DNA of 44,115 nucleotides from Thermodesulfobacteriota bacterium (GTDB taxonomy: Bacteria; Desulfobacterota; Desulfobacteria; Desulfobacterales; UBA11574). The notes under the pieces were generated by a model. It was not told the origin of the DNA. It worked only from the letters and a program-made list of their open reading frames with translations, and ran no database searches. The DNA lies in NCBI GenBank assembly GCA_034658755.1, contig JAYEFV010000147.1, positions 1 through 44,115 on the forward strand, written 5' to 3'. The position numbers and the translations under genes were made by a program. Positions 9,077-25,648 of the stretch are shown here, one piece after another. Positions within the stretch are counted from its first letter, which is position 1. Each line of letters opens with the position of its first letter.

Positions 9077-9165
9077 TAAGACACCTCCCCATCCATAGCA
9101 AACAATGCTATGGACCAGTACGTATTTTACGTAACACAAACACTTTGGATATAGGAGGTGTCTTA
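9077..9165 (+). promoter_or_regulatory. 12-bp perfect inverted repeat that can sequester the transposase SD and start codon
   Basis: TAAGACACCTCC (9077-9088) pairs with GGAGGTGTCTTA (9154-9165). An inner hairpin is CCATAGCA-aacaa-TGCTATGG (9093-9113). Confidence 0.55.
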
Positions 9166-10325: not shown

Positions 10326-10707
10326 AAAAACAATTGAACACGGTATGGCACCGAAGATTTTCTGGGGTCCGATTCAGCCGTCGTAGCCATAGGCTACTAT
10401 GGCGAAGTCTGCATGGACCAGGGGCCGTGTTTTAAGTATTGTGCATAAAACACAATTGCCTTGAACCTGATGGGCCTCCGGCTCGTAGAGCCTACGCCTC
10501 GGAGAGTGACTGGTGCGGATCAATATATACTGACTGATAACCAATAAAAATGAAATAACGGGTGCGAGATAGGTGGTAAAACAATACCGTGCTGTGGGGA
10601 ACTAAGAGCCAAGCGAAAAAAAAGAGGTATTTTTTTCATGGGAGAGGTGTTTTTTCTCTTGACTTACCCTTTAATGGGTGACCTCTTACCTTTTATATGC
10701 CTATATT

Positions 10708-10744
10708 GGTTGAAAAATGGTGAAATAAACCACTTTTTTCAACC
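10708..10744. promoter_or_regulatory. Near-perfect 14-bp inverted repeat upstream of the MerR-like gene (candidate operator or leader hairpin)
   Basis: GGTTGAAAAATGGT...ACCACTTTTTTCAACC ends 10 nt before ATG 10755. A possible promoter is TTGACT (10669-10674), an 18-nt spacer, then TTATAT (10693-10698). Confidence 0.3.
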
Positions 10745-10754
10745 AAAGGTAAAA

Positions 10755-11249
10755 ATGAATAAGATTTATCCGACTAATCTAGTTCGAAAATTGACCGGGG
10801 TGACTCTTAACCAGTTAAAATATTGGGTGAGAATTAATCTTGTTTCTCCGGAAAGAGATGGCAAGTTTTCTTTCTATTCTTTTAAGGATATTGTTAAGTT
10901 ACGAGTATTGGTTTCATTGAGAAAGAAAGGATTAAGTCTTCAACAGGTAAGAAAAGGGATAAAAAATTTAACCATGATGTTACCAGATGAAGAGCCAATT
11001 ACTAGGCTGATCATCTATACCGATGGAATGGACATGATTGTTGTTGAAAAAGGGAAATATTTCAACGCAATAACAAGACAACAGTATATCCGATTTGACA
11101 CGGAACAGATTGGTGCTGAGATAATTAAGTTACAAAAAACGAATAGTACTTTTATAAAAGAAAAGGCTAATTTTGAAAATAAAAAAAGTGATACCTCTCC
11201 CATATATTTAAGCTATTGCAGGATGGATGAAAGAAAACAATTGCAATGA
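10755..11249 (+). CDS. MerR-family HTH transcriptional regulator with a ~90-aa C-terminal domain
   Basis: LVRKLTGVTLNQLKYWVRINLVSP...YSFKDIVKLRVLVSLRKKGLSLQQV is MerR-type. The start is set at MNKIYPT, whereas the ORF track begins at 10638. It has an ATGA overlap with the next gene. Confidence 0.7.
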   Translation: MNKIYPTNLVRKLTGVTLNQLKYWVRINLVSPERDGKFSFYSFKDIVKLRVLVSLRKKGLSLQQVRKGIKNLTMMLPDEEPITRLIIYTDGMDMIVVEKGKYFNAITRQQYIRFDTEQIGAEIIKLQKTNSTFIKEKANFENKKSDTSPIYLSYCRMDERKQLQ

Positions 11250-12151
11250 ATGTATTAAACACAGTTCGCAATGAATTAAATCAATTAGGTTATTATCTTA
11301 AGGGGTACCCGAATTTAAAGGATTTTGCAGAAATTCACAGAGGTATTGAGTGGAATATTTCGCTTATAGAAAATAGGAATATATTAATATCGTTTGACCC
11401 AAAGCCTGGATTCAGCAAAGGGCTGGACAAGGTTCCAGGAAAAATAGAGCCTTTCTATGCCAAAGAATTTGTATATCTAAATGTGGATGAACCTTACAGA
11501 ATAAAAAACGTACATTCACTTCCATGGAATAGGACGAAGGTAATTGCAAATAGACACATAATCAGCCGTGGGCCATGGCGGATTGTTGGTTTCCCGGATT
11601 CCAGCGGTTTGGTTTTTCATGAAAACTTTATTGGAATTTGGCCAAAAACGAATATGACAATTGAAGTGCTTTCAGCTCTTATTAACTCACCTTTGATCAA
11701 TGCAGTTCTTTATGTGCATGAAGGTAAGCGTTTTAATCGGATTTCTACACTGAAACAAATTCCTGTTTCATTTCCCGGAGCTATTGATACTGAAAGAATC
11801 ACTCAGCTCGTCAAGTACTATGGCAAACTCCGACCAGGATTTAAAAGAGGTTCCGCTACAACACCAATCATCCAAAAATGTATTCAGACACTTATGGAAA
11901 TCGACAGCTTGATTTTAAAAGCCTACGATCTCCCTCCGAGGCTTGAACGCAAGCTGCTGGAATGTTTTAGAGGGTATGCACGGGCTGTTCCATTTGATTT
12001 TCCTGAATATTACCCTGAAGACTTTAGACCTTGTATTCCTTTACACAAATATCTTGAGATGGATTTAAAGCAAGCCAGTGCGGGAGAACTGCTCAAAAGA
12101 ATCACGCCCTTTGATTCCGAAGATATGCATGATTTTTTTATGGACATTTAG
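11246..12151 (+). CDS. Orphan TaqI/Eco57I-type target-recognition-domain protein (no methyltransferase motifs)
   Basis: LKDFAEIHRGIEWN and ...FIGIWPKTNMTIEVLSALINSPLINAVLYV... match the TaqI-like C-terminal specificity domain. They parallel YALWAILNHFLASLWF in the 961-aa MTase. No motif I or motif IV is present. Confidence 0.55.
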   Translation: MNVLNTVRNELNQLGYYLKGYPNLKDFAEIHRGIEWNISLIENRNILISFDPKPGFSKGLDKVPGKIEPFYAKEFVYLNVDEPYRIKNVHSLPWNRTKVIANRHIISRGPWRIVGFPDSSGLVFHENFIGIWPKTNMTIEVLSALINSPLINAVLYVHEGKRFNRISTLKQIPVSFPGAIDTERITQLVKYYGKLRPGFKRGSATTPIIQKCIQTLMEIDSLILKAYDLPPRLERKLLECFRGYARAVPFDFPEYYPEDFRPCIPLHKYLEMDLKQASAGELLKRITPFDSEDMHDFFMDI

Positions 12152-12233
12152 GCAGGGCAATCCTGATGGACGGATACCTTATAACGAATAAAGAATTAAT
12201 GGCTGTGTTTCAGGTTTCAAAAGGAAAAGCGGG

Positions 12234-12959
12234 ATGCAGAAAAACAAAATTGGCAGAAACCAACCGTGCCCCTGCGGTAGTGGAAAAAAATTTAAAAAAT
12301 GTTGCTATGGTAAAATATCGGTGGATAAGTCTTCAAATATGCTTTTGCCACTTTTAAGCGAAATTAATTATGGATCGCCGCCTTTATTAAACGATTCTTT
12401 TTTTATATCGAATCGGGTGCATGAAATTTCTGCACCACGTTTGCTTTATTCCAATTTATTAAATCCCGAAGTAGAGCAAATTGCATCGAAGTTGACAAGC
12501 CAATTGATAGATCGTGGACAAAAAGAAGCTATTGACATTGAAAAGGCAGAAAATACTGATGAGCTTATTAATTTAATGCGCAAGGGGGTAGATGTTTTAA
12601 ATCATGAAATATTAAAAGAAAAGCTATTGCAAAAAAAAGAAACAACGGTTCCAATTATTCTAAATGAATTGAAGAAACCTCAAAGTTCTCAATTTGTTGA
12701 AATATCAATAATAATATTGTACTTCTCAGAGATAGATTGTTCGAATGAGATTTTAGAAATACTACAAAAAACAAACTTAAATGCGTATACGGTCTCATTG
12801 CTTTGCATTCTTTTAGGATTTTATGGTGTAGAAGAATATGTCGAAATATTATGGAAATATTACCATTATTTTAAAGATCGATATCCTAATGAGACATTTA
12901 GTGATGGCCCATTAATAAGTTTATCAGAGATATGGGAAAGAAAAAAGGAAAGTAGTTAG
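12234..12959 (+). CDS. SEC-C metal-binding-motif protein
   Basis: N-terminal NQPCPCGSGKKFKKCC. The remaining ~210 aa are helical and AT-rich-encoded, with no motif I recognise. Confidence 0.65.
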   Translation: MQKNKIGRNQPCPCGSGKKFKKCCYGKISVDKSSNMLLPLLSEINYGSPPLLNDSFFISNRVHEISAPRLLYSNLLNPEVEQIASKLTSQLIDRGQKEAIDIEKAENTDELINLMRKGVDVLNHEILKEKLLQKKETTVPIILNELKKPQSSQFVEISIIILYFSEIDCSNEILEILQKTNLNAYTVSLLCILLGFYGVEEYVEILWKYYHYFKDRYPNETFSDGPLISLSEIWERKKESS

Positions 12960-13011
12960 AGATGATGGCAGACGTTTACACTTTGGGAATTGATCGGAAA
13001 AGGTGAATCGG

Positions 13012-13146
13012 ATGACACGCAAGAAAAAAACCGGTAAAAAACCGATTGAGCAGCATGATCACAAGGGCAAAAATCGGGGCAATAATCCGCCGGTTGGTCT
13101 GGTGACTCCAGATACCGACAAAAAGATGTTTGGTGTTGTTTCTTGA
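13012..13146 (+). pseudogene. 44-aa N-terminal stub of a second type III-like Mod methyltransferase
   Basis: MTRKKKTGKKPIEQHDHKGKNRGNNPPVGLVTPDTDKK parallels the N-terminus of the intact Mod, MAKKKKSTRVQDYRHDKKRKNNPPIGMVSYEPK. The frame ends inside the hairpin at 13132. Confidence 0.5.
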
Positions 13147-13195
13147 ATTGTAAATATCATCACCTAGTCACTATTCAAGACGCGATACCATTTTT
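13132..13195 (+). terminator. Hairpin plus T-run element (homologue at 24722-24768)
   Basis: The 17-nt arms GGTGTTGTTTCTTGAAT and ATTCAAGACGCGATACC pair with G-U wobbles on the + strand RNA only. TTTTT follows at 13191-13195. Confidence 0.5.
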
Positions 13196-13254
13196 CTACA
13201 ATCAAATCTAAAATACATAGAAAACCATGCTTTTCAAAAAGAGAGGCACATCCC

Positions 13255-16140
13255 ATGCAAGAATTACCAGAAAATAAAACTGGGCATGAAAAGTCGATTA
13301 GTGATTCCATCCGAAATACAATAAGTTCGGCTTTTCAACAGGTTGGGTACTCCAAAAGAATGATTTTGCATGATGTAAGTTTTGTTGGGGAGGGTGGAAA
13401 ACCTCACAAAGCAGATATGGTGGCCTATTCGAGTTCCCTGCGTCAAGATGCAGACACGGCTGTAATATCTGTAAAAGGGTCTGAAAACACGGAAAAAATT
13501 CAATTTGATGCGGATATTTCCCCATTCCGTGCATTGGCGACTCCAATTATCGTACTTGCAGAATACAGAGCTATTCATGGTGTGGCAGAACCCAGAGTGA
13601 GAACCGTAGGTCTGTGTAAAGATGCAGCTACATTTAAAAAGGAAAAAGCAGAAAGCAATATTATTCCCCTTTCCAGATTTGAAGAATACCTTAGAAATAA
13701 TCAACAATTTTTCACGCCACGTCGTTTAGAGGAGGCAAAGTTGGTTCCCGTTCCCGAACAACTCACGTTGTTTGATATAGCTCCGCACCTCAATAAGCAA
13801 GCATTGCAAATCGCTGAGAAAGAACTTGTTGATCGATTTGAAAAAGGTGTCAGGGAAGTTATAAAATTCACAAGTGACGAATATAAGCAACGAGTTATAA
13901 ATGCAGCTATTTCAGTACTTGGTGCCCGAATCCTTCGCGACAGATTGAAGAAAAATTGGCCACTCCCTTCCGGCGCAATAGAATTCTTATCTTTTGCTAA
14001 GAAATTTTTACCTGGCTATTTTGATATATCCAAAAAAATTGCTGGAATGCTCGACCCTCTGCTTAATCGATTACCCTCTGCTTTTGATTTTTCCCAGGTA
14101 AGTCTGGATATGGTTGGAAAATTTTATGCTTCAGCTTTTGTTACAAAAGAACTCCGGGACAAATGGGGGATTCACTACACTAAATCTTTGTTAGCAAGAA
14201 CACTTTTGAGGCGGATGCCTATTGAAGAGCTTCCCCCTGACAAGCGTATTCTTGCGGATCCTACTTGTGGTTCAGGAAGCCTTTTAACAGCAGGCTACGA
14301 ACGACTCGCGAATGCTACTTATCTTAGAATCCCTCAGAATGAAAGGCATCAGCGACTTGTTGGCACCATTTTCGGCAATGACAGAGATCAATTTGCCGCC
14401 GAAATAACGCGCATGACTTTGATGCTGTTTCATCCGCCCCACAAGAATAATTGGAAAGTAACTCATTTTGACGCAGAAAAGGATAGCTTTGGACGTAGAT
14501 GGACAAAGGAAATTGAAGTGACACCAACTATCATCGTAGCAAATCCGCCCTTTGGAGGAAAAGGTGGAGGTGCATCTACCACAGTCAAACCAAGAACAAG
14601 ACACCAACCTGATAGATCTGCTTTAATATTAAATCACTGTTTGAATATTCTTCCTGAAAACGGTTTGTTAGGTATTATTCTTACCGAAACAGTATTAGAT
14701 CAGCAGTTATTGAAAACAACCAGACATCGGGTTTTAAAGGAATGCCAAATCATAGAACAGTGGGATATTCCGGTGGGATGGTTTGATAATGTAAATCGTC
14801 CTGCCATGGCGTGGATCTTACGCAAGACCGCTCCATCGTCCAAAACGGTTTATATCCGTTCTCTTTCTGATGTACCATCCTTAGGAAGGGAGGCGAAATT
14901 ACATGGGACTATCCAAATTGATTTTGCCAATCCGCCTGAACACCTTGTTCCAACAGTTTTTGATGATATTTTGTCTAAAATGGAAATGAGTCCAAATTGC
15001 ATCAAGGATTATTACAGTGTGATGAATGGACTTCAACCGCTAAAAGGAAAGGTTACGACGGAAAAATCTGAGAAGGCTCATTCATGGAGCGGCAATGCTA
15101 TAGGTACTGATCCCTATACAGATTGCAGTAATGGTAATAAAGGCTGGTTGGAATTAATTAATGAAAATTTTGACGAAAGGAGCCAAAGGTTAGATTTGCG
15201 AAAACATCTGGATCAAAATGCACCTATGGTCATGCTTAGGGCAAATCGAAAAGCTCCCTGGAAATATAAATGGAGCTCAATGGCACTGATCAATATACCA
15301 GATAATTCCCGAAAAGTAGTGGCACCCTCAGCAAGTTATCATGTGACATTTTCTAAAAGCAATAATGATATTGATAAAACGAATAATGTCTATGCATTAT
15401 GGGCTATTTTGAACCATTTTCTTGCCAGCCTATGGTTTCATGAACGCCAGAGGGTTCAGACAATTCCTACCAAAAATTACAGGGATTTCCCATTGCCGAA
15501 AGTTTGGAACATAAAGAATATCAAGTTATTAGCTTCAACCGCAAAAGAACTCATTGACACAAAAAGAACAATCTATTCAAAACCGATACTTGACCCTCAA
15601 GATAGTCCAAAAATCAAGGAAATGGTGAAGAAAATTGATGATATTATCTATCAGATGTATGAAATCAAACAAGGAGAAAGACGACGGATCGAAGCCTTGT
15701 TTGGCGAAGAACAGCGTCCTTTACTTGTAGACATTGAGCAAACAAAAAAAGCTGCCCCAAAATCAAATATTGGTTCCGGTATCATTTATGACGAACCGGA
15801 ATGGGAAACCACTTGCGAAACCTTAGAACTCCACTTTGAAAAAAACCGTATAAGGCTCACTATTGACGGATTGACAGATTGTTCTGAAGATCTCGGATCT
15901 GCCGAAGATGGGATCTGGCTGAAAATAATTCCTGCCATGCCGGGATGGCTGTTGGAGAATGGGGCTGTGGGCTGGGTTGACATTACTACGGATAGCGCCA
16001 AAAAATTAAAACGATCCCCTGAAAAATACGTCCTTGGATTTCGCCTTCACAAGAACGCCTACAAGACACAAGATGAGATTGACAAATGTTTGCTCCTTGC
16101 CTCTAATGCGGAAATGAAAAAGGCGGAGGCAAATGGGTAA
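13255..16140 (+). CDS. Type IIG/IIL-like gamma-class N6-adenine DNA methyltransferase with N-terminal nuclease-like domain, TaqI-type TRD and an unassigned C-terminal domain
   Basis: Motif I is ILADPTCGSGSLL (~14255-14280) and motif IV is IVANPPFGG (14542-14553). The TRD reads ...VYALWAILNHFLASLWF. The product is 961 aa. An AGAGAGG SD precedes the ATG. Confidence 0.85.
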   Translation: MQELPENKTGHEKSISDSIRNTISSAFQQVGYSKRMILHDVSFVGEGGKPHKADMVAYSSSLRQDADTAVISVKGSENTEKIQFDADISPFRALATPIIVLAEYRAIHGVAEPRVRTVGLCKDAATFKKEKAESNIIPLSRFEEYLRNNQQFFTPRRLEEAKLVPVPEQLTLFDIAPHLNKQALQIAEKELVDRFEKGVREVIKFTSDEYKQRVINAAISVLGARILRDRLKKNWPLPSGAIEFLSFAKKFLPGYFDISKKIAGMLDPLLNRLPSAFDFSQVSLDMVGKFYASAFVTKELRDKWGIHYTKSLLARTLLRRMPIEELPPDKRILADPTCGSGSLLTAGYERLANATYLRIPQNERHQRLVGTIFGNDRDQFAAEITRMTLMLFHPPHKNNWKVTHFDAEKDSFGRRWTKEIEVTPTIIVANPPFGGKGGGASTTVKPRTRHQPDRSALILNHCLNILPENGLLGIILTETVLDQQLLKTTRHRVLKECQIIEQWDIPVGWFDNVNRPAMAWILRKTAPSSKTVYIRSLSDVPSLGREAKLHGTIQIDFANPPEHLVPTVFDDILSKMEMSPNCIKDYYSVMNGLQPLKGKVTTEKSEKAHSWSGNAIGTDPYTDCSNGNKGWLELINENFDERSQRLDLRKHLDQNAPMVMLRANRKAPWKYKWSSMALINIPDNSRKVVAPSASYHVTFSKSNNDIDKTNNVYALWAILNHFLASLWFHERQRVQTIPTKNYRDFPLPKVWNIKNIKLLASTAKELIDTKRTIYSKPILDPQDSPKIKEMVKKIDDIIYQMYEIKQGERRRIEALFGEEQRPLLVDIEQTKKAAPKSNIGSGIIYDEPEWETTCETLELHFEKNRIRLTIDGLTDCSEDLGSAEDGIWLKIIPAMPGWLLENGAVGWVDITTDSAKKLKRSPEKYVLGFRLHKNAYKTQDEIDKCLLLASNAEMKKAEANG

Positions 16141-16951
16141 GATACAATATGATTATGAAGTCATATTTATCGATGTAGGTCAGGGAGATGCCACACTTAT
16201 ACATCAATTATCAAATATGCATTCTGTTTTAGTTGATGCAGGAATTGCAAAGCCGGTCTTAACCGCCCTTAGGCAGAGCGCTCAACTTAAAGCAATTTTC
16301 ATTACCCATTGGGATAAAGATCATATCGGCGGTATGTCAGCCGTTATTAACTGGTTATCGAATAAATATCAGAAAGCCGTCGATGTTTTCATAAATCTTC
16401 AAGATACGTCCACTAAGATTGCAAAAATATTAAGCAGAACACTTGATGAAGCATGTGAGAATGGAACAGTTGAGTTAAAACATGCATGTAACGATTCAAA
16501 GAATCCGATTGAAATAATCAATGGAAGTTTTTTGATATTATGGCCTCCTTATAGAAAAGTTATAAGGTATCCTGATAACAGAAATTTTGGTTCTTTAATT
16601 CTTCGCTTTGATGTTGGAGATTTCAGCTTAGTTCTCGGCGGTGATGCTGGTGGAGATGTTTGGCCTCTTGTTGACCAGACAGTACTTAAAGCAGATGTTT
16701 TCAGGTATCCCCATCATGGCGGAGAGCTTTTCACAGGCAAAAACAGTTGGTCGGCAGAGGATCTTATATCGAAAGTGAATCCAGACTGGATAGTGGTATC
16801 CGTGGGTGTAAACAATCCCCACGGCCATCCTTCTGAAGAATTTATTAATGCTCAATCACGGCATCCGAATATACAGGTTCTTTACACAACCGAAGGAAAT
16901 ATCAATTTGCAAATAAAAAGCGCCGTTGGAAATATAAGAGTGAGGCAATAA
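16133..16951 (+). CDS. Stand-alone ComEC/Rec2-type metallo-beta-lactamase-fold hydrolase
   Basis: Motifs are FIDVGQGDATLI, ITHWDKDHIGG (16306-16332), GGDAGGD and YPHHGG. It overlaps the upstream gene by 8 nt, and its stop directly abuts the mod ATG. Confidence 0.85.
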   Translation: MGKIQYDYEVIFIDVGQGDATLIHQLSNMHSVLVDAGIAKPVLTALRQSAQLKAIFITHWDKDHIGGMSAVINWLSNKYQKAVDVFINLQDTSTKIAKILSRTLDEACENGTVELKHACNDSKNPIEIINGSFLILWPPYRKVIRYPDNRNFGSLILRFDVGDFSLVLGGDAGGDVWPLVDQTVLKADVFRYPHHGGELFTGKNSWSAEDLISKVNPDWIVVSVGVNNPHGHPSEEFINAQSRHPNIQVLYTTEGNINLQIKSAVGNIRVRQ

Positions 16952-19660
16952 ATGGCAAAGAAAAAGAAAAGCACACGAGTCCAGGACTATCGCCATGACA
17001 AAAAACGGAAAAACAATCCCCCCATCGGGATGGTGAGTTATGAGCCAAAAATCTCTGAGCCTAAAATAAAACGCTATGGCTATGATCCGCATCTTTCGCC
17101 TCAACTGATCTGGGCTGGCAAGCCCGGGCTCAAAACGATTGAGGTTGAAGACCGGTCAGGTATAGAAGTGGACTCTGTTTCTCTCCATGTACACGAACGG
17201 GTCAGTGCGCAGGCCATTATTAAGTCTGTTCAGCGAGAAGATAAACAGATGAAACTCTTTGCAGATCCTCAATTGCCTCTCCATAAGGCGGTTCAGTTTT
17301 ATTTGCACGACGTTGACTGGGCAAATCGTTTGATTCTTGGGGACTCTCTTTTGGTGGCAAATTCCCTGATCGAACGTGAGATGATGGCCGGCAAGGTACA
17401 GATGATCTACATGGACCCGCCTTACGGGGTGAAATATGCCAGCAATTTTCAGGCCAGGATTGACCGGCGGGATGTAAAAGACAGCGACGAACATCTCACC
17501 CGGGAGCCCGAAATGATCAAGGCCTACCGGGACACCTGGAAACTGGGGATTCATTCCTACCTCACTTATATGCGTGATCGTTTGAGGGTATGCAGGGATC
17601 TGCTTGTAGAATCCGGATCAATATTTGTGCAGATTAATGATGAGAATCTGCACTTGGTCAGGACTATTATGGATGAGGTATTCGGGGGTTCCAATTTTAT
17701 ATCTCTCATAACATTTACTAAAACTACTGGCTTTGCTTCTGAACTTTTAGATTCGATTGCAGATTATATCCTATGGTACAGCAAAGATAAAAAACAGGTG
17801 AAGTTTCGACAGCTTTTCCAACCGAAAACAATGGGCCTGGAGGGAGCAAAGCACTATGATTTTATTGAATTACCGGATGGAACTCGCAGAAGACTTATTT
17901 TAGAGGAAAAAATTGATCTCACCTTGCTACCATCTGAAGTCAAATTCTTTTCCTCTGACCAATTAACATCGCAGGGTGAAACGCCAAGTGGTTCAGTTCC
18001 GGTTAAGTATGAAGACCGTATTTTTAATTGCCCTACTGGGCTTCATTGGAAAACAACACCAGAGGGAATTAGGAGACTTGGTGAGCAAAGAAGGTTATTG
18101 GTGCAAGGCAACATGCCTCGATACGCGAGATTCCTCGATGATTTTCCTGTTATCCCTATTAATAATGTTTGGGGAATGTTTCAACTCGCAGAAAAAACTT
18201 ACGTAGTTCAAACAGCACCTGGTGCAGTTCAACGCTGCATTCTCATGACTACCGATCCGGGCGATCTGGTTTTTGATCCAACTTGCGGGTCTGGTACGAC
18301 AGGCTTTGTGGCCGAGCAATGGGGCCGGCGCTGGATTACATGTGATACCAGTCGGGTTGCACTGGCTCTGGCGCGACAAAGGCTTCTCACCGCCACTTTT
18401 CCCTATTATAAGATTGATGATGAAGTCAACGGACAAAATCCCGGTTACGGTTTTAACTATAAAACAGTTCCGCATATTACATTAAAATCCATTGCACAAA
18501 ATACACGCATTGATCCTCTGGCTGAAAAATACAATCCTCTTATTACTGATGCTCTAAAGCAATTTAATCAATCTGCAAACACCTCTTTTAAGGAGTGGGA
18601 GGTACCATTCGAACCTGATAAAAAGTGGTCAAAGAAAGCCAGGGAACATTTCAAAGAATTCCGCATGTTAAAGCAAAAAAAGCAGGCGGCAATTGATAAA
18701 ATAATTGCAGAGGATGCGCCACAGGAAATTCTTTATGATCAGCCTGAAATTGACCGAAAAATTGTCAGGGTTTCAGGTCCTTTCACTGTTGAAGCCATTC
18801 CTCCGCCCATATATGAAGTTGAATCGCCGATTGGTGGCGAACCTGAATCTATTGAAAGAGATGATGCCATCGAAGCCCGTCCTGGTGTTGAAAACCATAT
18901 CCCCACCCTTATCAATCTATTGCAAAAGGATGGGGTCACTTTCCCTGACAATAAAAAACTGACATTTGATGTCCTGACAACTCGAACAGGTGGGGTACTG
19001 CATGCAGAAGGGGAGGCAGAAGGCAAAAAAATTGCTATTTCATTCGGGCCGCTTCACGGTCCTGTCTCTTTAATGCAGGTGGAAGATGGATTGAGAGAAG
19101 CCTACATGGGAGGCTATGACGAAATCATCTTTTGCGGTTTTGCCTTTGATCCTGAAGCGCAGGCAGCAATAAATGCCAACGTTCATCCTAAAGTCAAAGC
19201 CCATGCCTCTCATATCCGGCCGGACGTTATCTTAAAGGATGCCGAAGGCGGTGATTTGTTAAAAACCACGGCTTCAAGTCAGCTATTTACCGTATTTGGC
19301 GAGCCGGATATAGACCTTGTTAAAAATAAGGGCGAGTTTACAATAAAGCTCCTTGGCGTGGATGTATATGATCCCATCTCCGGTGTTGTACACTCTGAAA
19401 ATGTGGGACGGGTGGCAGCATGGTTCGTGGACACCGACTATAACAAACGAACTTTTTGTATTGTCCAGGCGTTCTTTCCAAATAAAAGCGCCTGGAAAAA
19501 GTTAGAGCGGGCTTTGAAAGGTAAGCTTGATGAGGATCGTTTTGAAATGCTTACAGGTCATGTCTCTTTGCCGTTTCGTCCCGGAAATCATAAAAGGGCT
19601 GCTGTAAAAGTTCTTGATCAGCGCGGTAATGAAGTCATGAAGGTGGTGGATCTTGAATAA
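16952..19660 (+). CDS. mod: Type III-like restriction-modification methyltransferase (beta-class Mod)
   Basis: Motif IV MIYMDPPYG (17414-17425) lies upstream of motif I FDPTCGSGTTGFVAEQWGRRWITCD (18275-18301). The product is 902 aa. Confidence 0.9.
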   Translation: MAKKKKSTRVQDYRHDKKRKNNPPIGMVSYEPKISEPKIKRYGYDPHLSPQLIWAGKPGLKTIEVEDRSGIEVDSVSLHVHERVSAQAIIKSVQREDKQMKLFADPQLPLHKAVQFYLHDVDWANRLILGDSLLVANSLIEREMMAGKVQMIYMDPPYGVKYASNFQARIDRRDVKDSDEHLTREPEMIKAYRDTWKLGIHSYLTYMRDRLRVCRDLLVESGSIFVQINDENLHLVRTIMDEVFGGSNFISLITFTKTTGFASELLDSIADYILWYSKDKKQVKFRQLFQPKTMGLEGAKHYDFIELPDGTRRRLILEEKIDLTLLPSEVKFFSSDQLTSQGETPSGSVPVKYEDRIFNCPTGLHWKTTPEGIRRLGEQRRLLVQGNMPRYARFLDDFPVIPINNVWGMFQLAEKTYVVQTAPGAVQRCILMTTDPGDLVFDPTCGSGTTGFVAEQWGRRWITCDTSRVALALARQRLLTATFPYYKIDDEVNGQNPGYGFNYKTVPHITLKSIAQNTRIDPLAEKYNPLITDALKQFNQSANTSFKEWEVPFEPDKKWSKKAREHFKEFRMLKQKKQAAIDKIIAEDAPQEILYDQPEIDRKIVRVSGPFTVEAIPPPIYEVESPIGGEPESIERDDAIEARPGVENHIPTLINLLQKDGVTFPDNKKLTFDVLTTRTGGVLHAEGEAEGKKIAISFGPLHGPVSLMQVEDGLREAYMGGYDEIIFCGFAFDPEAQAAINANVHPKVKAHASHIRPDVILKDAEGGDLLKTTASSQLFTVFGEPDIDLVKNKGEFTIKLLGVDVYDPISGVVHSENVGRVAAWFVDTDYNKRTFCIVQAFFPNKSAWKKLERALKGKLDEDRFEMLTGHVSLPFRPGNHKRAAVKVLDQRGNEVMKVVDLE

Positions 19661-22580
19661 TCAGAATGATTTTAAAGGCTCCAGACACCTTGCCGTAGAT
19701 GAGCCCATCATCAACTCTCCATTTGAAGAGCCGAAACAATATTGGGTTTATGACGCTTTTACCGGCCAGCCTGCAAAAGTCCCGGGCCGCAGGCCTGCCC
19801 ATTACTATTTCCGCAGTCGAAGGCGGGCCGATGCCGCCCAAATCAGTCTTTTTGCTGATGAAGAAATGGTTGAACTCGAATCGGTCAACAAAATTCGTAA
19901 CCGGGTTAAAAAATGGCGGGAAGGCGGATATAAAAATGTTGGCCACATTACCAGACAGCTTCTCAGACACTGGACCTATCCTGATCGTGAAAAAAAACTT
20001 TTTTTCTGTCAGCTTGAAGCAGCAGAGACCATCATCTGGCTGAACGAAATCCACAAGTCCGGCAGACACGGCCTAAAGATTCCTTATGATGAGCCTCTGG
20101 AAGAAGGCTTTCAGGACTTAAGGCGCCAGTGTCTTAAAATGGCTACGGGAAGCGGTAAGACCGTGGTTATGGCAATGATTATTGCATGGAGCGTCCTGAA
20201 CAAAGTCCACAACAGGCAGGCCAGATGGTGCTCTGATACGGTATTGTTGGTTTGTCCGAACCTTACCATCAAAGAGCGTTTGGGAGGTACACCAAAGGGA
20301 CAAAACGGCAGCACTGAACCTGAGAGGGCGCTTGTTGCCGGTGCCAAGGGCAATTATTATGATAAATTTGACCTTGTTCCCAGTTCCTTGAAAGAATATC
20401 TGGGACAGGCAAAACTCCTGATCACCAACTGGCATCAGTTTGCAGAGATAGATGATCGCAGGAAACGGAGCATTATCCAGCGTGGTGTGGAGAGCCCCTC
20501 GGCTTTTTGCAACCGTGTTTTGCGGGAACTGGGTAGCGCCAGGAATATTCTGGTCTTAAATGACGAAGCCCACCATGCCTACCGCCCGGCGCCTGTTGAT
20601 GAAAATAATAGAAAAAAAACAAAACTTACGGCCGAAGAAAAAAAGACCAGGGAAAAAGCCACAGTTTGGATTAGTGCTCTGGATAAAATCAACAAAGCAA
20701 GAGAGATCAATCTTGTCGTAGATCTTTCGGCTACACCTTTCTATATCCAGGGGAGCGGTTACCCTGAAGGCAGTCCATTTCCCTGGATTGTATCTGACTT
20801 TGGCCTTGTTGATTCCATCGAATGCGGCATTGTAAAGATACCGCAGGTTCCGGTTGATAGTAATTCAGGCCGGCCTATTCCAGAGTATTTTGCTCTATGG
20901 AAATGGATAAATGACAGGTTGCCTGCCAGAGAGAGGGCTACGGGCAGGCGTAAACCCAAGCCAGAGGCAATACTCCGTGAAGCTGATGGAGCTTTAAAGC
21001 AATTGGCCGGGCAATGGAAAGCAAAGTATGAAGAATTCAAGAGTATAAACCATCCTGTACCGCCCACGATGATTATTGTTTGCGACAATACGAATATTGC
21101 AGAGCTGCTACATGAATATGTCAGTGGTGAACGCTGGGAGAAGTATCAGGATGAAAAAGGAAAGAAAAGAAAGAGGAAAGTTTACGGAACAGGCGGAGTG
21201 CTTCCCGAGTTACTTTCAAACAATGAGAGGCTTGAAAATACAATCCGTATCGATAGCAAACTTCTAAATGAAGCAGAAGAACGGGATGACGGGCAGACCA
21301 AAGAGGATGCCGCTGAATCCTTGCGCAAAAAAATAAGCACTGTGGGAAAGGTTGGTGAGCCAGGTCAGGATATTCGTTGCATAGTTTCCGTCTCCATGCT
21401 TACCGAAGGCTGGGATGCACAGAATGTGACACAAATTTTAGGCCTTCGGGCCTTCCTTTCTCAACTATTGTGTGAACAGGTTATAGGTAGAGGCCTGAGA
21501 CGAACACAGTACGATGATTTTGCTGTTCCTGAATATGTTGATGTTTATGGAATTCCCTTTGAAGTTATCCCGGTAAAGAAAAAACCGGTTGGTCCAGCCC
21601 CTCCACCAACAAAAACGACCCTTATCCAGTCTCTTTCAGAAAGGGAGCATTTGAAGATTGAGTTTCCGAGGGTTGAAGGATTCGTTTATCAAATAAAAAG
21701 CAAAATCAGGGCTGATGTAGGAAATATTGAACCATTGAGTATTGATCCAAATATCGAGCCCACCGAAACGGTTGTGCGGGCGAGGGTCGGTTATCAAGTA
21801 GGCTCACCAGGATTAGTCGGTCCCGGTGAAAAAGTTACTCAAACTCGTGAGGCGTTTTATGAGAGTATTCGTCCCCAGCAAATTCATTATGAAATTTCAA
21901 GAAGAATAACTGCATCGCTATTGAATCAAGATGATTTTAAAATGCAGGCCAGACAAATGCTTTTTCCGCAGGTGTTACAAATTGTCAGACAGTATGCAAA
22001 GCCTTTATCTGAAGGGGGGCGTATTGAATATAATGCTATTGATTCTCGTGAGATAGGCCTTGAACGTTATGTGCAGATTATCGTTGAACGACTGTGTACA
22101 GCCATTCGACCGGATGAAGGAAGTGGTGAATCGCCACTGCTACCTCGTTTAGAACGATTCCGGCCCCGAGGGTCCACTCAGGAAGTTCTTTTCAGGACTT
22201 CGCGCCAGGCAAAACAAACAATCAAGAGCCATGTTTCCCATGTGGTTCTTGACACCAAAACATGGGAACGTTCAGTTGCTTTCCATTTGGAACAGAGTGA
22301 ACTGGTGGAATCATATGTTCGCAATGATCATCTGGATTTTACAATTGATTACGAATTCAATGGTTCTCAGCATTCTTATATGCCCGATTTTTTGGTCAGG
22401 CTGAAAAATGGAACAAACCTTATACTCGAAGTAAAAGGATTTGAAGACGAGCAGGCACGTGCGAAGCATGAAGCTGCAAAAAGGTGGTGTGACGCGGTCT
22501 CCGACTGGGGAGAGATGGAAAAATGGAAATTTGATGTATGCAGAGATCCTAAAAAGCTTAAAGGTCTACTGGGAAAATAG
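19653..22580 (+). CDS. res: Type III-like restriction enzyme Res subunit (SF2 helicase plus C-terminal PD-(D/E)xK nuclease)
   Basis: It has Walker A MATGSGKT (20139-20162), a DEAH box LNDEAHHAY (20562-20576) and helicase motif SMLTEGWDA. The C-terminal YMPDFLV...LILEVKG lies at 22383-22436. A TTG start is preceded by AAGGTGG. Confidence 0.9.
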   Translation: MNNQNDFKGSRHLAVDEPIINSPFEEPKQYWVYDAFTGQPAKVPGRRPAHYYFRSRRRADAAQISLFADEEMVELESVNKIRNRVKKWREGGYKNVGHITRQLLRHWTYPDREKKLFFCQLEAAETIIWLNEIHKSGRHGLKIPYDEPLEEGFQDLRRQCLKMATGSGKTVVMAMIIAWSVLNKVHNRQARWCSDTVLLVCPNLTIKERLGGTPKGQNGSTEPERALVAGAKGNYYDKFDLVPSSLKEYLGQAKLLITNWHQFAEIDDRRKRSIIQRGVESPSAFCNRVLRELGSARNILVLNDEAHHAYRPAPVDENNRKKTKLTAEEKKTREKATVWISALDKINKAREINLVVDLSATPFYIQGSGYPEGSPFPWIVSDFGLVDSIECGIVKIPQVPVDSNSGRPIPEYFALWKWINDRLPARERATGRRKPKPEAILREADGALKQLAGQWKAKYEEFKSINHPVPPTMIIVCDNTNIAELLHEYVSGERWEKYQDEKGKKRKRKVYGTGGVLPELLSNNERLENTIRIDSKLLNEAEERDDGQTKEDAAESLRKKISTVGKVGEPGQDIRCIVSVSMLTEGWDAQNVTQILGLRAFLSQLLCEQVIGRGLRRTQYDDFAVPEYVDVYGIPFEVIPVKKKPVGPAPPPTKTTLIQSLSEREHLKIEFPRVEGFVYQIKSKIRADVGNIEPLSIDPNIEPTETVVRARVGYQVGSPGLVGPGEKVTQTREAFYESIRPQQIHYEISRRITASLLNQDDFKMQARQMLFPQVLQIVRQYAKPLSEGGRIEYNAIDSREIGLERYVQIIVERLCTAIRPDEGSGESPLLPRLERFRPRGSTQEVLFRTSRQAKQTIKSHVSHVVLDTKTWERSVAFHLEQSELVESYVRNDHLDFTIDYEFNGSQHSYMPDFLVRLKNGTNLILEVKGFEDEQARAKHEAAKRWCDAVSDWGEMEKWKFDVCRDPKKLKGLLGK

Positions 22581-22796
22581 GGGATATCCGTGAAATATTA
22601 ATATGTTGGAATGAAATGGGACGTAGGTTCTGAAGCATTTACTCAGATTGGCAGGTAAATTAATTTTAAATAAGGAGAATATAAGATAAACACTTTCCAA
22701 ATTGCGTTACGGCACAGGGACTTGCGGGACCTTATGATCATTTAATATATAACGTCCATAAATAAGTAAATAACTATCTTTTAAGCATGGGAAGGG

Positions 22797-22929
22797 TTGC
22801 GGTACATTAGTTTATAAGTTGACGTGGTAATTGAACTGAAGAAGGTAGTTGACCCCGATTAAATAAAAACAAAGTCAATTTAACTGGGCAGGCTATGTTG
22901 AATAATTGTAAGGATAAAGGGCGTAAAGG
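22797..22929. repeat. 133-bp direct repeat, copy 1 (partner 24523-24655)
   Basis: It differs from copy 2 at 3 positions. It contains the hairpin core CCCCG(A/G)TTAAAT...ATTTAACTGGGCAGG, and a partial inverted copy lies at ~38297-38345. Confidence 0.9.
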
Positions 22930-23094
22930 TCGGCACTTTTCACAACAAAAGGGAAAAAATTAGGAAGAATTCCCGTGTTGGCATATTTATCAAGCAGTAT
23001 ATGGGCATCGCCGGCACAGACACTGGTCAAGACAGTTAGTGGATATTCCTCTTGGGTATAGTTGTGAATATTTGCAAATGTTGAAGGAACAGTG

Positions 23095-24495
23095 ATGAAG
23101 AAAAAGGAATTAAAGGAACTTATTGAACAAGGCGAGGGTTATTTTGTCGAATTTAAAGAACAGATCGGGGTGGGTCTCGATAAAGAGATGGTTGCTTTTG
23201 CAAATGCCTCTGGAGGAAAGATTGTCATAGGGGTGACGGATAGAGGTAAAATTATCGGATGCACAACCGACAATACAGTACGATCTAAAATTCAGGATAT
23301 TGCCAATAACTGTGATCCCCGGATTTTGATACATATCGAAACAGTGCGGTACGAAGGCGTAAAACTGCTTGTTGTTTCAGTAGATGAAAGTTTCGATAAG
23401 CCTGTGCGTTGCTCAAAGGGTTTCTTTTTAAGAGAGGGGCCTAATTCTCAGAAATTGACAAGAAATGAAATATTAGCGCTTGCTGCTGGTGCCGGGAAAT
23501 TCAAATTTGATATGCAGCCATGCAGAAGTTTCAATTATCCTGAAGATTTTGAAGACACAAAATGGCGCCATTTTTTAGATACAACAGGAATTGCTCCTCC
23601 TGAAAACAGTGAAGATTTACTGACAAATTTAGGTTTTGCAGAAGATAAAGCAGGATTTCGGATTACAAATGCCGGAGCGCTTTTTTTCGGCAGGGATATT
23701 GAATCTCATATTCGTCACAACTTTATTACCTGTGTGCTTTTTAAAGGTACTACCAAAACAAAGATACTTGATCGGAAGGATTTTAAGGTTGATCTACTTT
23801 CTAACTATGAAAATGCATTTCGCTTTTTACAGCAGCATCTCAAATTTGAGTACTTAATTGAAGATGGAGGGCCTCGAAAAGAAATTCCGGAAATTCCCCT
23901 AGAAGTTTTACGGGAGGGGCTTGTAAATGCAATTGTCCATCGAGATTATTATGAGGAAGGCGCTGGCATCCTTGTTGAAATCTACGACAACCGTGTGGAA
24001 ATAATCAATCCCGGCCGCCTTCTTTTTGACAAAAGTAAGTTTGGAAAGCTGAGTGTAGCGCGAAATCCTATAATATTCGATGCGTTTTATCGACTTGGGA
24101 TCACCGAGAAAATCGGCTCCGGTATTAATAGAATGCGTGAAGCTATGACTGAAAGGGGTATTAAAATTGCGTTTGATACAGAGGACTTTTTTATTGTAAC
24201 CTTAACAAGGCCGGAAACTACACAAAAAGAAGTTATCCCCCAAGTTACCCCCCAAGTTACCCCCCAAGCTTTGAGTGATGTTGAATTGAGGATATTAGGA
24301 TTTTGCCATGAAGAGAGATCAGCTTCAGAGATCATAAATTTCACAGGAATGAATCCGGATTATATCCGGAAAGATATCATTCCCAAATTGATTGAAAAGG
24401 ACTTTTTGGTTTTAACAATACCGAATAAACCGAGAAGCCCTCACCAAAAGTATATCCTCACAGAAGCGGGAATGAAACATGTCAAAACAATGTAG
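23095..24495 (+). CDS. AlbA_2 (Schlafen-like) DNA-binding domain / HATPase_c_4 ATP-binding protein with C-terminal wHTH
   Basis: The N-terminal region GEGYFVEFKEQ...MVAFANASGGKIVIGV is AlbA_2. The central region LREGLVNAIVHRDYYEEGAGILVEIYDNRVEIINPG is HATPase-like. Confidence 0.8.
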   Translation: MKKKELKELIEQGEGYFVEFKEQIGVGLDKEMVAFANASGGKIVIGVTDRGKIIGCTTDNTVRSKIQDIANNCDPRILIHIETVRYEGVKLLVVSVDESFDKPVRCSKGFFLREGPNSQKLTRNEILALAAGAGKFKFDMQPCRSFNYPEDFEDTKWRHFLDTTGIAPPENSEDLLTNLGFAEDKAGFRITNAGALFFGRDIESHIRHNFITCVLFKGTTKTKILDRKDFKVDLLSNYENAFRFLQQHLKFEYLIEDGGPRKEIPEIPLEVLREGLVNAIVHRDYYEEGAGILVEIYDNRVEIINPGRLLFDKSKFGKLSVARNPIIFDAFYRLGITEKIGSGINRMREAMTERGIKIAFDTEDFFIVTLTRPETTQKEVIPQVTPQVTPQALSDVELRILGFCHEERSASEIINFTGMNPDYIRKDIIPKLIEKDFLVLTIPNKPRSPHQKYILTEAGMKHVKTM

Positions 24496-24522
24496 AATCA
24501 GAGCAAGAAAACTTGGGCGGAC

Positions 24523-24655
24523 TTGCGGTACATTAGTTTATAAGTTGACGTGGTAATTGAACTGAAGAACGTAGTTGACCCCGGTTAAATAAAAACAAAG
24601 TCAATTTAACTGGGCAGGCTATGTTGAATAATTGTAAGGATAAAGGACGTAAAGG
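24523..24655. repeat. 133-bp direct repeat, copy 2
   Basis: See 22797-22929. It starts 28 nt after the AlbA_2 gene stop. Confidence 0.9.
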
Positions 24656-24721
24656 AATTAAAGAATAAATAATCATTTTGTTTATGGAGAGACAGTAAGT
24701 GGTGAGCACTTCTGTGTGTTT

Positions 24722-24768
24722 GGTGTCGCATCTTGAATTGTGAATATTATTCAAGACGACACCATTTT
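24722..24768 (+). terminator. Hairpin plus T-run element, homologue of 13132-13195
   Basis: GGTGTCG(CA)TCTTGAAT-tgtgaatatt-ATTCAAGACGACACC is followed by ATTTTCT. It shares flanking TGTTTGGTGT with the first copy. Confidence 0.55.
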
Positions 24769-24868
24769 CTGAGGTCACAAGCTGCTCTCCGAACAACTGG
24801 AGAATATCTACACCCTCATTGGGCAAATACCGGCGCAATAACATAAGCTGGAAGGGAAACGAATCAAA

Positions 24869-25648
24869 ATGCCCATGTCACAAAACGAATTAGAGGATCT
24901 GAAATATGCGAAAGAACTTTTAGAAAACCCGGGGCTGGCTGCAAGAATCACTGATGCGTTGGGAACAGCTATTGATAAAGGGTTTGAGCTTCTGCCCGCC
25001 AAATGGTCAGAGATGGTTCAGCAGACCACAAAAGAATCATTGCGCAAGGCACTGGAATTTGCGGTCATAACCATGGATGATCGGCCAAGGGTATCTTCTT
25101 GGAGTTTTTTGCACAAAATGCTGGCTGCAACTTCCGGTGCAATAGGTGGCGCCTTTGGTCTTCCAGCTCTTACGGTGGAGTTGCCCGTCTCAACAATCAT
25201 CATACTCCGTTCCATTGCCGATATCGCGCGGAGCGAAGGTGAAAAGATCAAAACGCTCGAATCAAAATTGGCTTGCCTGGAAGTTTTTGCCCTTGGAGGG
25301 AAATTGCCCGGAGACGATGCAACAGAAACCGGATATTTTGTGGTGCGGGCTGCTTTTGCCCGCGAGGTTTCCGAGGTCGCCAAATACATAGCGAAAAAAG
25401 GGTTGGCCGAGGATGGTGCTCCGGCGATTGCAAGGTTCATTACCAAAATTGCATCCCGTTTTGGAGTAAACGTTTCAGAGAAAATTGCAGCACAGGCTGT
25501 GCCTATAATTGGAGCAGCTGGAGGTGCATTGATAAACACGATTTTTATCGATCATTTCCAGGACATGGCACGTGGTCATTTTATCGTACGCAGGATTGAG
25601 AGGGTCTACGGGACTGACGAGGTTAAACGTCAATACGAACAACTATGA
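24869..25648 (+). CDS. EcsC-family protein
   Basis: 259-aa ORF. The N-terminal LENPGLAARITDALGTAIDKGFELLP and the glycine/alanine-rich helices are typical of EcsC. Confidence 0.7.
   Translation: MPMSQNELEDLKYAKELLENPGLAARITDALGTAIDKGFELLPAKWSEMVQQTTKESLRKALEFAVITMDDRPRVSSWSFLHKMLAATSGAIGGAFGLPALTVELPVSTIIILRSIADIARSEGEKIKTLESKLACLEVFALGGKLPGDDATETGYFVVRAAFAREVSEVAKYIAKKGLAEDGAPAIARFITKIASRFGVNVSEKIAAQAVPIIGAAGGALINTIFIDHFQDMARGHFIVRRIERVYGTDEVKRQYEQL

Follow-up and report, generated by a model that had tools for sequence, protein, structure and literature searches.

Defence islands bring unrelated systems into close contact, and a locus on contig JAYEFV010000147.1 of a Thermodesulfobacteriota bacterium (assembly GCA_034658755.1) raises the question of whether four genes without a single intergenic nucleotide between them make up one system or two. 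The analysed stretch (positions 1 to 44,115, hereafter the window) encodes, on the plus strand, a gamma-class methyltransferase (MTase; gene 1, 13255-16140, 961 aa), a metallo-beta-lactamase (MBL) protein of ComEC type (gene 2, 16133-16951, 272 aa), a beta-class Mod (gene 3, 16952-19660, 902 aa) and a Res helicase-nuclease (gene 4, 19653-22580, 975 aa). A preliminary description of this DNA proposed that the four proteins may act as a composite, with two recognition modules drawing on common effectors. Our analysis points to another answer. The best overall explanation, which we consider probable, is that the four genes are two separate and self-sufficient defence modules joined end to end, one known (genes 3-4, module B) and one apparently uncatalogued (genes 1-2, module A), and that the two are co-expressed as a by-product of island compaction, without functional dependence of one on the other.

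The layout itself was reproduced in full, including the coordinates of the four open reading frames (ORFs) and all three junctions. The stop of gene 1 and the start of gene 2 overlap by 8 nt (ATGGGTAA, 16133-16140), genes 2 and 3 abut (TAAATG, 16949-16954), and genes 3 and 4 again overlap by 8 nt (TTGAATAA, 19653-19660, with AAGGTGGTGG just before). The motifs quoted previously are all present: ADPTCGSGS and NPPF in gene 1, DPPY ahead of DPTCGSGTT in gene 3, and MATGSGKT, NDEAHH and PDF...LEVKG in gene 4. Domain searches likewise upheld the assignments of a gamma-class MTase with its own target recognition domain (TRD), a ComEC-type MBL protein, a beta-class Mod and a helicase-nuclease Res. 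Since each of the four has many full-length homologues, these are real genes and not chance ORFs. The proposal of a single expression unit is plausible, as Mod lacks a separate upstream region at this locus (homology to stand-alone mod-res pairs begins 11 nt before its ATG), and a single promoter probably serves the four genes in this lineage. A promoter and terminator consensus scan of 12200-23200 gave counts no higher than in shuffled sequence, an Rfam scan of 12900-25000 gave no match, and megablast of 12900-22700 against plasmids and phages revealed no close DNA relative.

The distribution of genes 1 and 2 across genomes is what separates them from their neighbors. A scan of GTDB species genomes and JGI metagenomes with the gene 1 alignment identified 42 loci with true homologues, and in tblastn and profile searches the gene 1 homologue was immediately succeeded by an MBL gene wherever the locus reaches far enough. 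At least 27 independent gene 1-MBL loci are at 36-88% identity, and six further loci at 22-30% identity (P0102, P0110, P0108, P0105, P0104 and Pseudanabaena galeata plasmid pPg_01) likewise have an MBL gene next to the gene 1 homologue. The junction is mostly the same 8-nt overlap as in the window, and the identities of gene 1 and gene 2 to their window counterparts co-vary (Pearson r = 0.92, n = 26 loci). A full mod-res pair was found in none of the ~33 independent gene 1-MBL loci. The pair occurs in Desulfobacterota, Leptospiraceae, Spirochaetota and other bins, including the complete genome of Desulfosarcina alkanivorans PL12 (L010), and its flanks vary from locus to locus, encompassing housekeeping genes, transposases, toxin-antitoxin-like regulators, LexA/S24 and HTH-M78 proteins and another type IIG gene, as expected for a mobile cassette. 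From this distribution we confidently predict that genes 1 and 2 are an autonomous two-gene module, independent of mod-res.

Genes 3 and 4, in turn, have their own life elsewhere. Gene 4 scores 974.3 bits against the NCBIfam model NF046055 (BPTD_3080 family restriction endonuclease; cut-off 800), with residues 15-973 aligning to positions 1-966 of the 970-position profile, and gene 3 scores 618.7 bits (E 4.6e-186) against the PADLOC MTase_III model PDLC03632. The latter carries an N6_N4_Mtase domain (PF01555) with DPPY at residue ~155 and FDPTCGSGTT at residue ~440, that is, motif IV before motif I, the order of the beta class, and belongs to a very large family (> 8000 hits). The former combines ResIII and Tn7_TnsA-like_N domains, corresponding to a superfamily 2 (SF2) helicase with Walker A MATGSGKT and NDEAHH and a C-terminal, TnsA-like PD-(D/E)xK nuclease (PDF...LEVKG). 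The closest relatives of the pair stand alone, all without genes 1-2: L163 and L164 (Mod 78%, Res 88%) and L165 (Mod 77%, Res 87%), which share the 8-nt overlap, gene order and domain organisation of the window pair and the PDLC03632 type of Mod. DNA homology between the window and these three loci starts at 16941/16963, which is the Mod start, and is broken only at 17718-18198, between motifs IV and I, which corresponds to the variable TRD of Mod. Upstream of mod-res, L163 and L164 encode a helix-turn-helix (HTH) protein, an unknown protein and a radical-SAM protein of the spore photoproduct lyase-like (SPL) type; for L165 the contig offers only 473 bp upstream of Mod.

The preliminary description had called mod-res type III-like, and motif order, domains and gene order agree with this, mod lying immediately upstream of res with an 8-nt overlap as in type III systems. 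The canonical type III Res family does not include gene 4, which scores 17.2 bits on NF012027 (cut-off 564) and 16-46 bits, over short stretches only, on the PADLOC REase_III models. Given this low score, we file genes 3-4 under the type III-like BPTD_3080 family and not with EcoP15I-type enzymes. They are predicted to be an ordinary new member of this known family of restriction-modification (RM) pairs, from which the window pair differs only by its fusion behind another system and by the Mod TRD at 17718-18198. The claim that the four genes lie outside all named families appears to hold for one half of the block: genes 3-4 are catalogued (NF046055, MTase_III), and genes 1-2 have only generic or sub-threshold matches.

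If the four proteins acted as one composite system, with two recognition modules sharing a helicase-nuclease and an MBL hydrolase, their genes should be seen to travel together. The absence of intergenic space at any junction, the lack of an upstream region for Mod in the window and the retention of the junction between the gene 2 stop and the Mod start throughout the clade that has it all agree with such a system. The combination is limited to that one clade, however, and each pair is found alone in many genomes, already equipped with its own methyltransferase and its own nuclease. Mod sequence follows gene 2 only in one Desulfobacterota sub-clade (gene 1 at 74-88% identity), always through the same stop-ATG junction, and the complete four-gene order was found only in the window and in L162, with degraded derivatives in the same clade. 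The preliminary description had suggested looking for genes 1-2 and mod-res side by side in unrelated genomes and had accepted that a failure to find them would mean chance juxtaposition; as the juxtaposition is not recurrent, it is better explained by a single past event that joined two systems within a defence island.

The derivatives within this clade reveal how the two halves fared after the fusion. L162, with 95% identity to window 15727-21172, retains the four-gene order and mod-res but carries a stop at gene 2 codon 182. L079/L080 (and L002) share synteny with the window over the stretch that begins at the MerR gene and ends with gene 2, and have genes 1-2 intact, and an in-frame deletion at an 8-nt microhomology fuses Mod codon 67 to the last ~47 Res codons, so that the joint reads ...IEVED and then EQARAKHEAAKRW... 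across the break. Elsewhere Mod is truncated at codon ~65 (L082/L084, break point at window 17145), ~111 (L086/L009, 17284) or ~128 (L081, 17336), with unrelated DNA beyond, and in L001/L078 the 3' end of gene 2 is missing. In all, mod-res was lost or truncated in at least four ways in the fusion clade and gene 2 was broken twice. These remains strongly suggest that the modules fused once and were then each lost without the other, the opposite of what would be predicted for an interdependent four-protein machine. Either half having been lost with the other intact, we regard a composite four-protein system as very improbable; overlapping junctions, however tight, do not alone signal one system within a defence island.

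One other history of the junction was discarded, an insertion of genes 1-2 into the mod gene with the short Mod stub upstream of gene 1 (13013-13147, described below) as its displaced N-terminus. This does not fit, since the N-terminus of gene 3 is complete and is shared with the stand-alone relatives from 11 nt before the ATG, and the stub is only ~45% similar and hence derives from another Mod. We also observed that in L082 (~4900-5023) and L084 (~14100-14292) the ORF following the truncated Mod N-terminus begins with ...KYFDVLVGYFRSS..., a motif that we take to resemble the N-termini of phospholipase D (PLD)-type nucleases in helicase-related defence proteins.

With the two modules set apart, the question becomes what module A does. 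Gene 1 is predicted to be an S-adenosylmethionine (SAM)-dependent N6-adenine DNA methyltransferase with its own TRD, of a type IIG/IIL/PglX-like kind, and to be the conserved core of the family. It matches the Pfam N6_Mtase/Eco57I domains, and its AlphaFold2 (AF2) model, built with 43 homologues, reached a predicted local distance difference test (pLDDT) score of 85 and a predicted template modelling (pTM) score of 0.84. Foldseek matched this model to M.BseCI, CamA, BpuSI, BrxX, MmeI and DrdV (E 1e-15 to 1e-19), with alignments of 800-976 columns to BpuSI, MmeI and DrdV. The gamma-class MTase domain proper (14167-14859, aa ~305-535) carries motif I (DPTCGSGS) and motif IV (NPPF), and motif I (GxG) and motif IV (NPPF/W) are kept in every aligned member of the family, down to the most distant ones and including those linked to the PIN and RES genes discussed below. 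It is followed by a TRD (14872-15654, aa ~540-800), supported by structural matches to TRD-bearing MTases, with a hypervariable core (15055-15204, aa 601-650) that is only 54-56% identical even to relatives 83-88% identical overall. That identity within the close family is lowest in the TRD corresponds to the diversification pattern typical of RM specificity domains. At the C-terminus lies a beta-rich domain with an 'MPGW' motif (15787-16098, aa ~845-948), present in all MBL-linked members.

The N-terminal part of gene 1 (13303-13659, aa 17-135) forms an alpha-beta-beta-beta-alpha-beta domain in the secondary structure of the AF2 model, a topology like that of the PD-(D/E)xK nuclease domain found N-terminally in type IIG/IIL enzymes. 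No D...(D/E)xK triad is conserved in this domain among the aligned homologues; strand 3 reads VISVK, and its lysine is replaced by Q in the clade at 36-39% identity or lost. In distant family members the N-terminal region is not alignable. Gene 1 could in principle be a single-chain type IIG/IIL RM enzyme that cuts with its own N-terminal domain and has the MBL gene as an unrelated or accessory neighbour, a possibility to which both this topology and the match in fold and architecture to BpuSI, MmeI and DrdV over 800-976 columns would lend themselves. The missing triad, the variability of the strand-3 lysine even in the close family and the loss of alignable sequence in distant members speak against it, however, as does the MBL gene itself, which still adjoins gene 1 in homologues at only 22-27% identity, in most cases by an overlap of stop and start codons, and co-diverges with it. 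We therefore give this explanation hardly any credence. The earlier classification of gene 1 as type IIG/IIL stands as regards the MTase and TRD in one chain, and falls short at the N-terminal domain, which lacks a conserved nuclease triad.

Gene 2 is predicted to be a cytoplasmic MBL-fold nuclease of ComEC type. It matches Lactamase_B and, over positions 441-659, the ComEC C-terminal region in TIGR00361 (69 bits), and its AF2 model (pLDDT 94) has the ComEC beta-lactamase-like domain 9ic4 as its best fold match in the PDB (E 4e-18, TM 0.76). The gene 2 family profile matches ComEC structures at 1e-27 to 1e-45 (9ic4_A 1.8e-45), from an alignment that includes ComEC-like outgroup sequences. The metal-binding motifs of the ComEC domains are conserved (DVGQGDA, T-H-x-D-x-D-H-I-G-G containing HxDxDH, D171, HH194-195 and H232), and the shared residues comprise D14, G16, G18, D19, H59, D63, H64, D171, H194, H195 and H232. 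Gene 2 is not a full ComEC, for which its 69 bits on TIGR00361 compare with a cut-off of 190, and the 272-aa protein has no membrane channel (Competence/DUF4131), no OB fold and no hydrophobic N-terminus; its neighbour is a methyltransferase, with no competence gene alongside. The nearest outgroup found by protein search is a split ComEC that does stand beside a Competence-domain gene, and the ComEC-like outgroup proteins have the hydrophobic N-terminus that gene 2 lacks. An identification with '6A-MBL' was dismissed, as gene 2 scores 30.6 bits on NF058524 against a cut-off of 220 and that system is ubiquitin-related (E1/E2) (PMC13276650).

The MBL domain of ComEC is a Mn2+-dependent nuclease (PMC8579336), acting as endonuclease and 5'-3' exonuclease and stimulated by a DNA-binding OB fold in cis (PMC12455585). 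For a free cytoplasmic copy of this domain that is always found beside a DNA-recognising MTase, the simplest reading would be that it serves as the nuclease subunit of that MTase. Module A is accordingly best read as an RM-like system with a trans-acting MBL nuclease. Gene 1 would read a specific DNA sequence through its hypervariable TRD and methylate an adenine at that site, as its conserved motifs I and IV suggest, thereby marking self; having an N-terminal nuclease-like domain without a catalytic triad, it would not cut. Cutting would fall to gene 2, a putative cytoplasmic two-metal nuclease of ComEC type without a DNA-binding domain of its own, which the C-terminal domain of gene 1 may recruit and so direct to unmodified foreign DNA. 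HTH proteins upstream could act as controllers, MerR doing so in the window, L001, L169 and Pseudanabaena and other regulators elsewhere. Restriction endonucleases are known in five folds (PD-(D/E)xK, HNH, GIY-YIG, PLD and half-pipe), and the MBL fold is not among them (PMC2441816). Should gene 2 prove to do the cutting in a methyltransferase-guided system, it would represent a new restriction fold and give the ComEC nuclease domain a second role in biology.

Gene 1-like proteins are not always followed by an MBL gene. Searches by tblastn against annotated plasmids identified an MTase followed by a PIN protein on Sinorhizobium chiapasense pSchITTGS70c and on Agrobacterium tumefaciens pAtA74a_a, where a Shedu gene adjoins, and on plasmid 8 of Rhizobium sp. 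Q54 the MTase is followed, with a 4-nt overlap, by a RES-domain protein, with a BseRI-type enzyme adjoining. These PIN and RES variants make up 3 of the ~36 independent loci examined. The Sinorhizobium and Rhizobium MTases cover positions ~15-814 of the gene 1 profile, encompassing the N-terminal domain, the MTase and the TRD, and the 'MPGW' C-terminal domain is absent in all three PIN/RES-linked members and present in all MBL-linked ones, including Pseudanabaena and those at 22-27% identity. The C-terminal domain of gene 1 (aa ~845-948) is therefore a candidate docking site for the MBL protein, and gene 1 itself may be a sensor or specificity subunit with an interchangeable MBL, PIN or RES effector. 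In PADLOC, the MBL partners come closest to effectors of Lamassu (LmuA), DRT (RTasMBL) and Avs1, which fits an effector role for the MBL partner.

The same observations can be read as those of an abortive-infection or guard system, in which gene 1 would sense foreign or unmethylated DNA, or would itself be what phage anti-restriction proteins attack, and would then release a latent toxic effector (MBL nuclease, PIN RNase or RES NADase) to arrest or kill the cell. PIN partners downstream in Sinorhizobium and Agrobacterium and a RES partner in Rhizobium sp. Q54, in tight operons, would be at home in such a system, as would the HTH regulators found upstream in many loci and the kinship of gene 2 and the longer MBL partners with the Lamassu, DRT and Avs1 effectors. 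Conservation of the MTase motifs across the family together with a hypervariable TRD is, on the other hand, what would be expected when methylation defines self, the PIN/RES variants are confined to 3 of ~36 independent loci, and a ComEC-type DNase brought to DNA by a binding partner restricts directly, without need for cell death (PMC12455585). A guard system is the less likely, though not far-fetched, account of module A, and we retain the RM-like system with a trans-acting MBL nuclease as the preferred one.

A broader proposal, which we advance tentatively and with more doubt than conviction, is that gene 1-type proteins define a new and widespread class of defence system, in which a IIG-like protein without its former nuclease would serve as a sensor of sequence and methylation and be paired mostly with a ComEC-type MBL DNase and otherwise with a PIN RNase or a RES NADase. 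If true, the MBL version would add a catalytic fold to the restriction endonucleases and the PIN and RES versions would be hybrids of RM and abortive infection. The exchange of MBL, PIN and RES partners suggests that self marking of the RM type can be wired to abortive-infection effectors, a link that is much discussed and for which few concrete examples are available. The occurrence of the family in culturable hosts (Desulfosarcina alkanivorans PL12, Pseudanabaena galeata CCNP1313, Agrobacterium tumefaciens A74a, Sinorhizobium chiapasense and Rhizobium sp. Q54) makes these proposals directly testable.

Several points weigh against the reading of the locus as two independent modules, the first of them an RM-like system. 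Methylation by gene 1, nuclease activity of gene 2 and contact between the two are each deduced from sequence. The proposed docking site depends on presence or absence of a domain in 12 aligned members, and the PIN and RES partners, which are not DNA restriction nucleases, fit an abortive-infection or guard logic better than classical restriction. Most of the comparison loci are short metagenome contigs, and faulty assembly could account for the stop codon in gene 2 of L162. The lack of any spacer at the junction and the lost upstream region of Mod make co-expression of the two modules very likely, and some lineage-specific functional interplay between them may exist. Lastly, the check for catalogued relatives covered PADLOC 2.0, NCBIfam and Pfam, and module A may already be listed in REBASE or in the current DefenseFinder.

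An exhaustive profile search of 1.84 billion representative proteins gave a measure of the size of the gene 1 family, with at least 150 clusters at 50% identity having full-length matches (E ≤ 1e-83) and 670 having matches at E ≤ 1e-30. No carriage by phages was detected: an IMG/VR scan with the gene 1 profile returned generic MTase-domain matches only and no family member, and tblastn of the gene 1 family against phage genomes found none. Further plasmid examples were sought by tblastn with the MTase of L169, which gave no match, and with its MBL, which recovered true ComEC genes and one MBL gene disrupted by an insertion sequence (IS) in Pseudanabaena ABRG5-3. On that plasmid (Pseudanabaena sp. 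ABRG5-3, L222, 3572-5525), the partner-type MBL gene is interrupted by an IS982 transposase.

Some neighbors of gene 1-2 modules deserve separate mention. In L005 (8784-9920) and L092 (5921-6376) the gene after the MBL gene encodes a smaller beta-class N6_N4 MTase with 28-30% identity to Mod aa 118-283, so that a beta-class MTase again stands beside module A there, although it is from a different family from Mod. In L014 (5908-9894) a gene for a 1328-aa type IIG enzyme of Eco57I/MmeI type lies directly upstream of the gene 1 homologue and contains a match to an IS200-like Y1 transposase at aa 648-739. Genes for radical-SAM proteins of the SPL type are found by gene 1-2 modules in L011 (13623-14717), L012 (13945-15042) and L009 (7287-8441), and also directly upstream of the stand-alone mod-res pair of L163 (6806-7957).

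The four-gene block resides in a variable island at ~4.4-25.7 kb of the window, between the molybdopterin genes mobA and moaE (1522-2495) and moaC (26155-26637), and appears to belong to a defence island inserted in a molybdenum-cofactor gene cluster. Besides genes 1-4, the island contains a HEPN-MNT pair, RadC, an ORF6N protein, an HsdM/DUF1016 fragment, a split IS110, a MerR regulator, a 301-aa protein, a SEC-C protein, a Mod remnant and a Schlafen/AlbA_2 ATPase. The overlapping MNT and HEPN genes (4409-5157) form a typical HEPN-MNT toxin-antitoxin module. In a 280-aa ORF (6910-7752) the N-terminal domain of HsdM (PADLOC MTase_I, 238 bits) is fused to the N-terminal part of DUF1016/PDC-S02; it looks like what is left of a decayed type I RM system, connected to a fragment of another defence gene. 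The IS110-family transposase is split into two ORFs (9158-9742, DEDD_Tnp_IS110, and 9785-10162, Transposase_20) and is probably a decayed IS.

The plus-strand MerR-family regulator (10638-11249, PF13411) is possibly a facultative regulator of module A. In L001/L078, L169 and Pseudanabaena pPg_01, too, a MerR gene immediately precedes the gene 1 homologue, and most other loci have none; with only ~5 independent contexts, MerR was rejected as an obligatory third gene of the module. In L001/L078 nothing separates the MerR gene from the start of the gene 1 block (window 11263 joins 13211; L001 9381-9963), and in the window and L079/L080 the 301-aa gene, the gene with the SEC-C motif and the Mod remnant are found between MerR and gene 1 (window 10638-12959 region).

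The Mod remnant is a plus-strand N-terminal stub of 44 codons (13013-13147, translation MTRKKKTGKKPIEQHDHKGKNRGNNPPVGLVTPDTDKK...) from a different Mod of the same broad family, which matches the first 31 residues of Mod homologues at 43-55% identity, loses homology after ~codon 38 and is also present in L002/L079/L080. No other Mod remnant was found elsewhere in the window. The stub implies that an earlier mod-res system occupied this spot and has since been displaced. A direct repeat with imperfectly matching copies (34 nt at 85% without gaps and, beyond an indel, ~20 nt more) has its left copy at 13127-13194, beginning exactly where the Mod remnant loses homology and ending at the start of the conserved gene 1-2 block, and its right copy at 24717-24768. 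The two copies bracket an 11.6-kb block consisting of genes 1-4 and the Schlafen/AlbA_2 ATPase gene and may mark the ends of an insertion; no integrase was found within the bracketed block and no Mod remainder after the right copy. Neither the Mod remnant nor this repeat figured in the preliminary description of the block. The Schlafen/AlbA_2 gene, which also encodes a HATPase_c_4 domain (23092-24495), is itself flanked by a 147-nt direct repeat of 94-98% identity (22783-22929 and 24509-24655). A 52-nt piece of this repeat occurs after gene 2 in L004 (5041-5092), and the repeat, which has no Rfam match, may be a dispersed element resembling repetitive extragenic palindromic (REP) sequences or miniature inverted-repeat transposable elements (MITEs).

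Module A and its distant versions gave only generic or sub-threshold matches in PADLOC 2.0, NCBIfam release 20 and Pfam, with no specific model, and literature searches yielded no account of a system combining MTase and MBL, of a restriction enzyme with the MBL fold or of an N6_Mtase and Lactamase_B pair, nor likewise of BPTD_3080. The module thus belongs to a widespread and apparently uncatalogued family, which shares features with several known systems. The architecture of Ambrosia, which combines an MTase with an HNH protein and a two-component system, was considered and set aside as unrelated.

With the type IIG/IIL enzymes BpuSI (3S1S), MmeI (5HR4) and DrdV (7LO5), gene 1 shares a nuclease-like N-terminus, a helical connector, a gamma MTase and a TRD of TaqI/MmeI type in one chain. 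It differs from them in the missing triad, in its extra C-terminal domain and in the separate MBL gene alongside; type IIG/IIL enzymes act alone, and an MBL, PIN or RES gene lies directly downstream of gene 1-type genes in all ~36 independent loci. On Pfam MmeI_Mtase, gene 1 stays below threshold (19 vs 27 bits). PglX/BrxX (9EWZ, 8C45), which marks self and recognises DNA for the multi-protein BREX system, also matches gene 1 structurally and shares its large gamma MTase and TRD, but gene 1 scores 22 and 18 bits on NF033451 and NF033452 against cut-offs of 400 and 500, and the BREX genes pglZ, brxC, brxL and brxA/B are absent nearby. MADS resembles module A in its mad1-mad2 module, a small HTH regulator with an N6 MTase, and the best PADLOC match of gene 1 is indeed mad2 (63 bits, MTase domain only), with the window MerR scoring a weak 19.7 bits on mad1. 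Gene 1 is nonetheless not a MADS component by the MAD2 equivalog NF047738 (34 bits vs 720), and mad3-mad8 are absent nearby. MADS is not known to have an MBL partner.

For gene 2, ComEC/Rec2 provides the best match in both sequence and structure, sharing the fold and all metal-binding motifs, from which gene 2 differs in being free-standing and cytoplasmic, without channel, OB fold, signal or membrane segment, and in being paired with a DNA methyltransferase. The LmuA variant of Lamassu, the reverse transcriptase-associated MBL protein of DRT and Avs1a of AVAST offer the closest parallels in organisation, in that a small MBL hydrolase executes beside a sensor, as gene 2 would; the scores to them are low (33-57 bits, partial), and their sensors are an SMC-like ATPase, a reverse transcriptase and a STAND NTPase and not a methyltransferase. 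The PrrC anticodon nuclease, which is guarded by the type I RM system EcoprrI, is an example of a toxic effector embedded in, and controlled by, an RM recognition protein. The likeness is conceptual, with no sequence relationship, and could explain the PIN and RES variants of module A; it differs in that the effector here would mostly be a DNase, and in that no nuclease subunit belongs to the RM-like protein itself.

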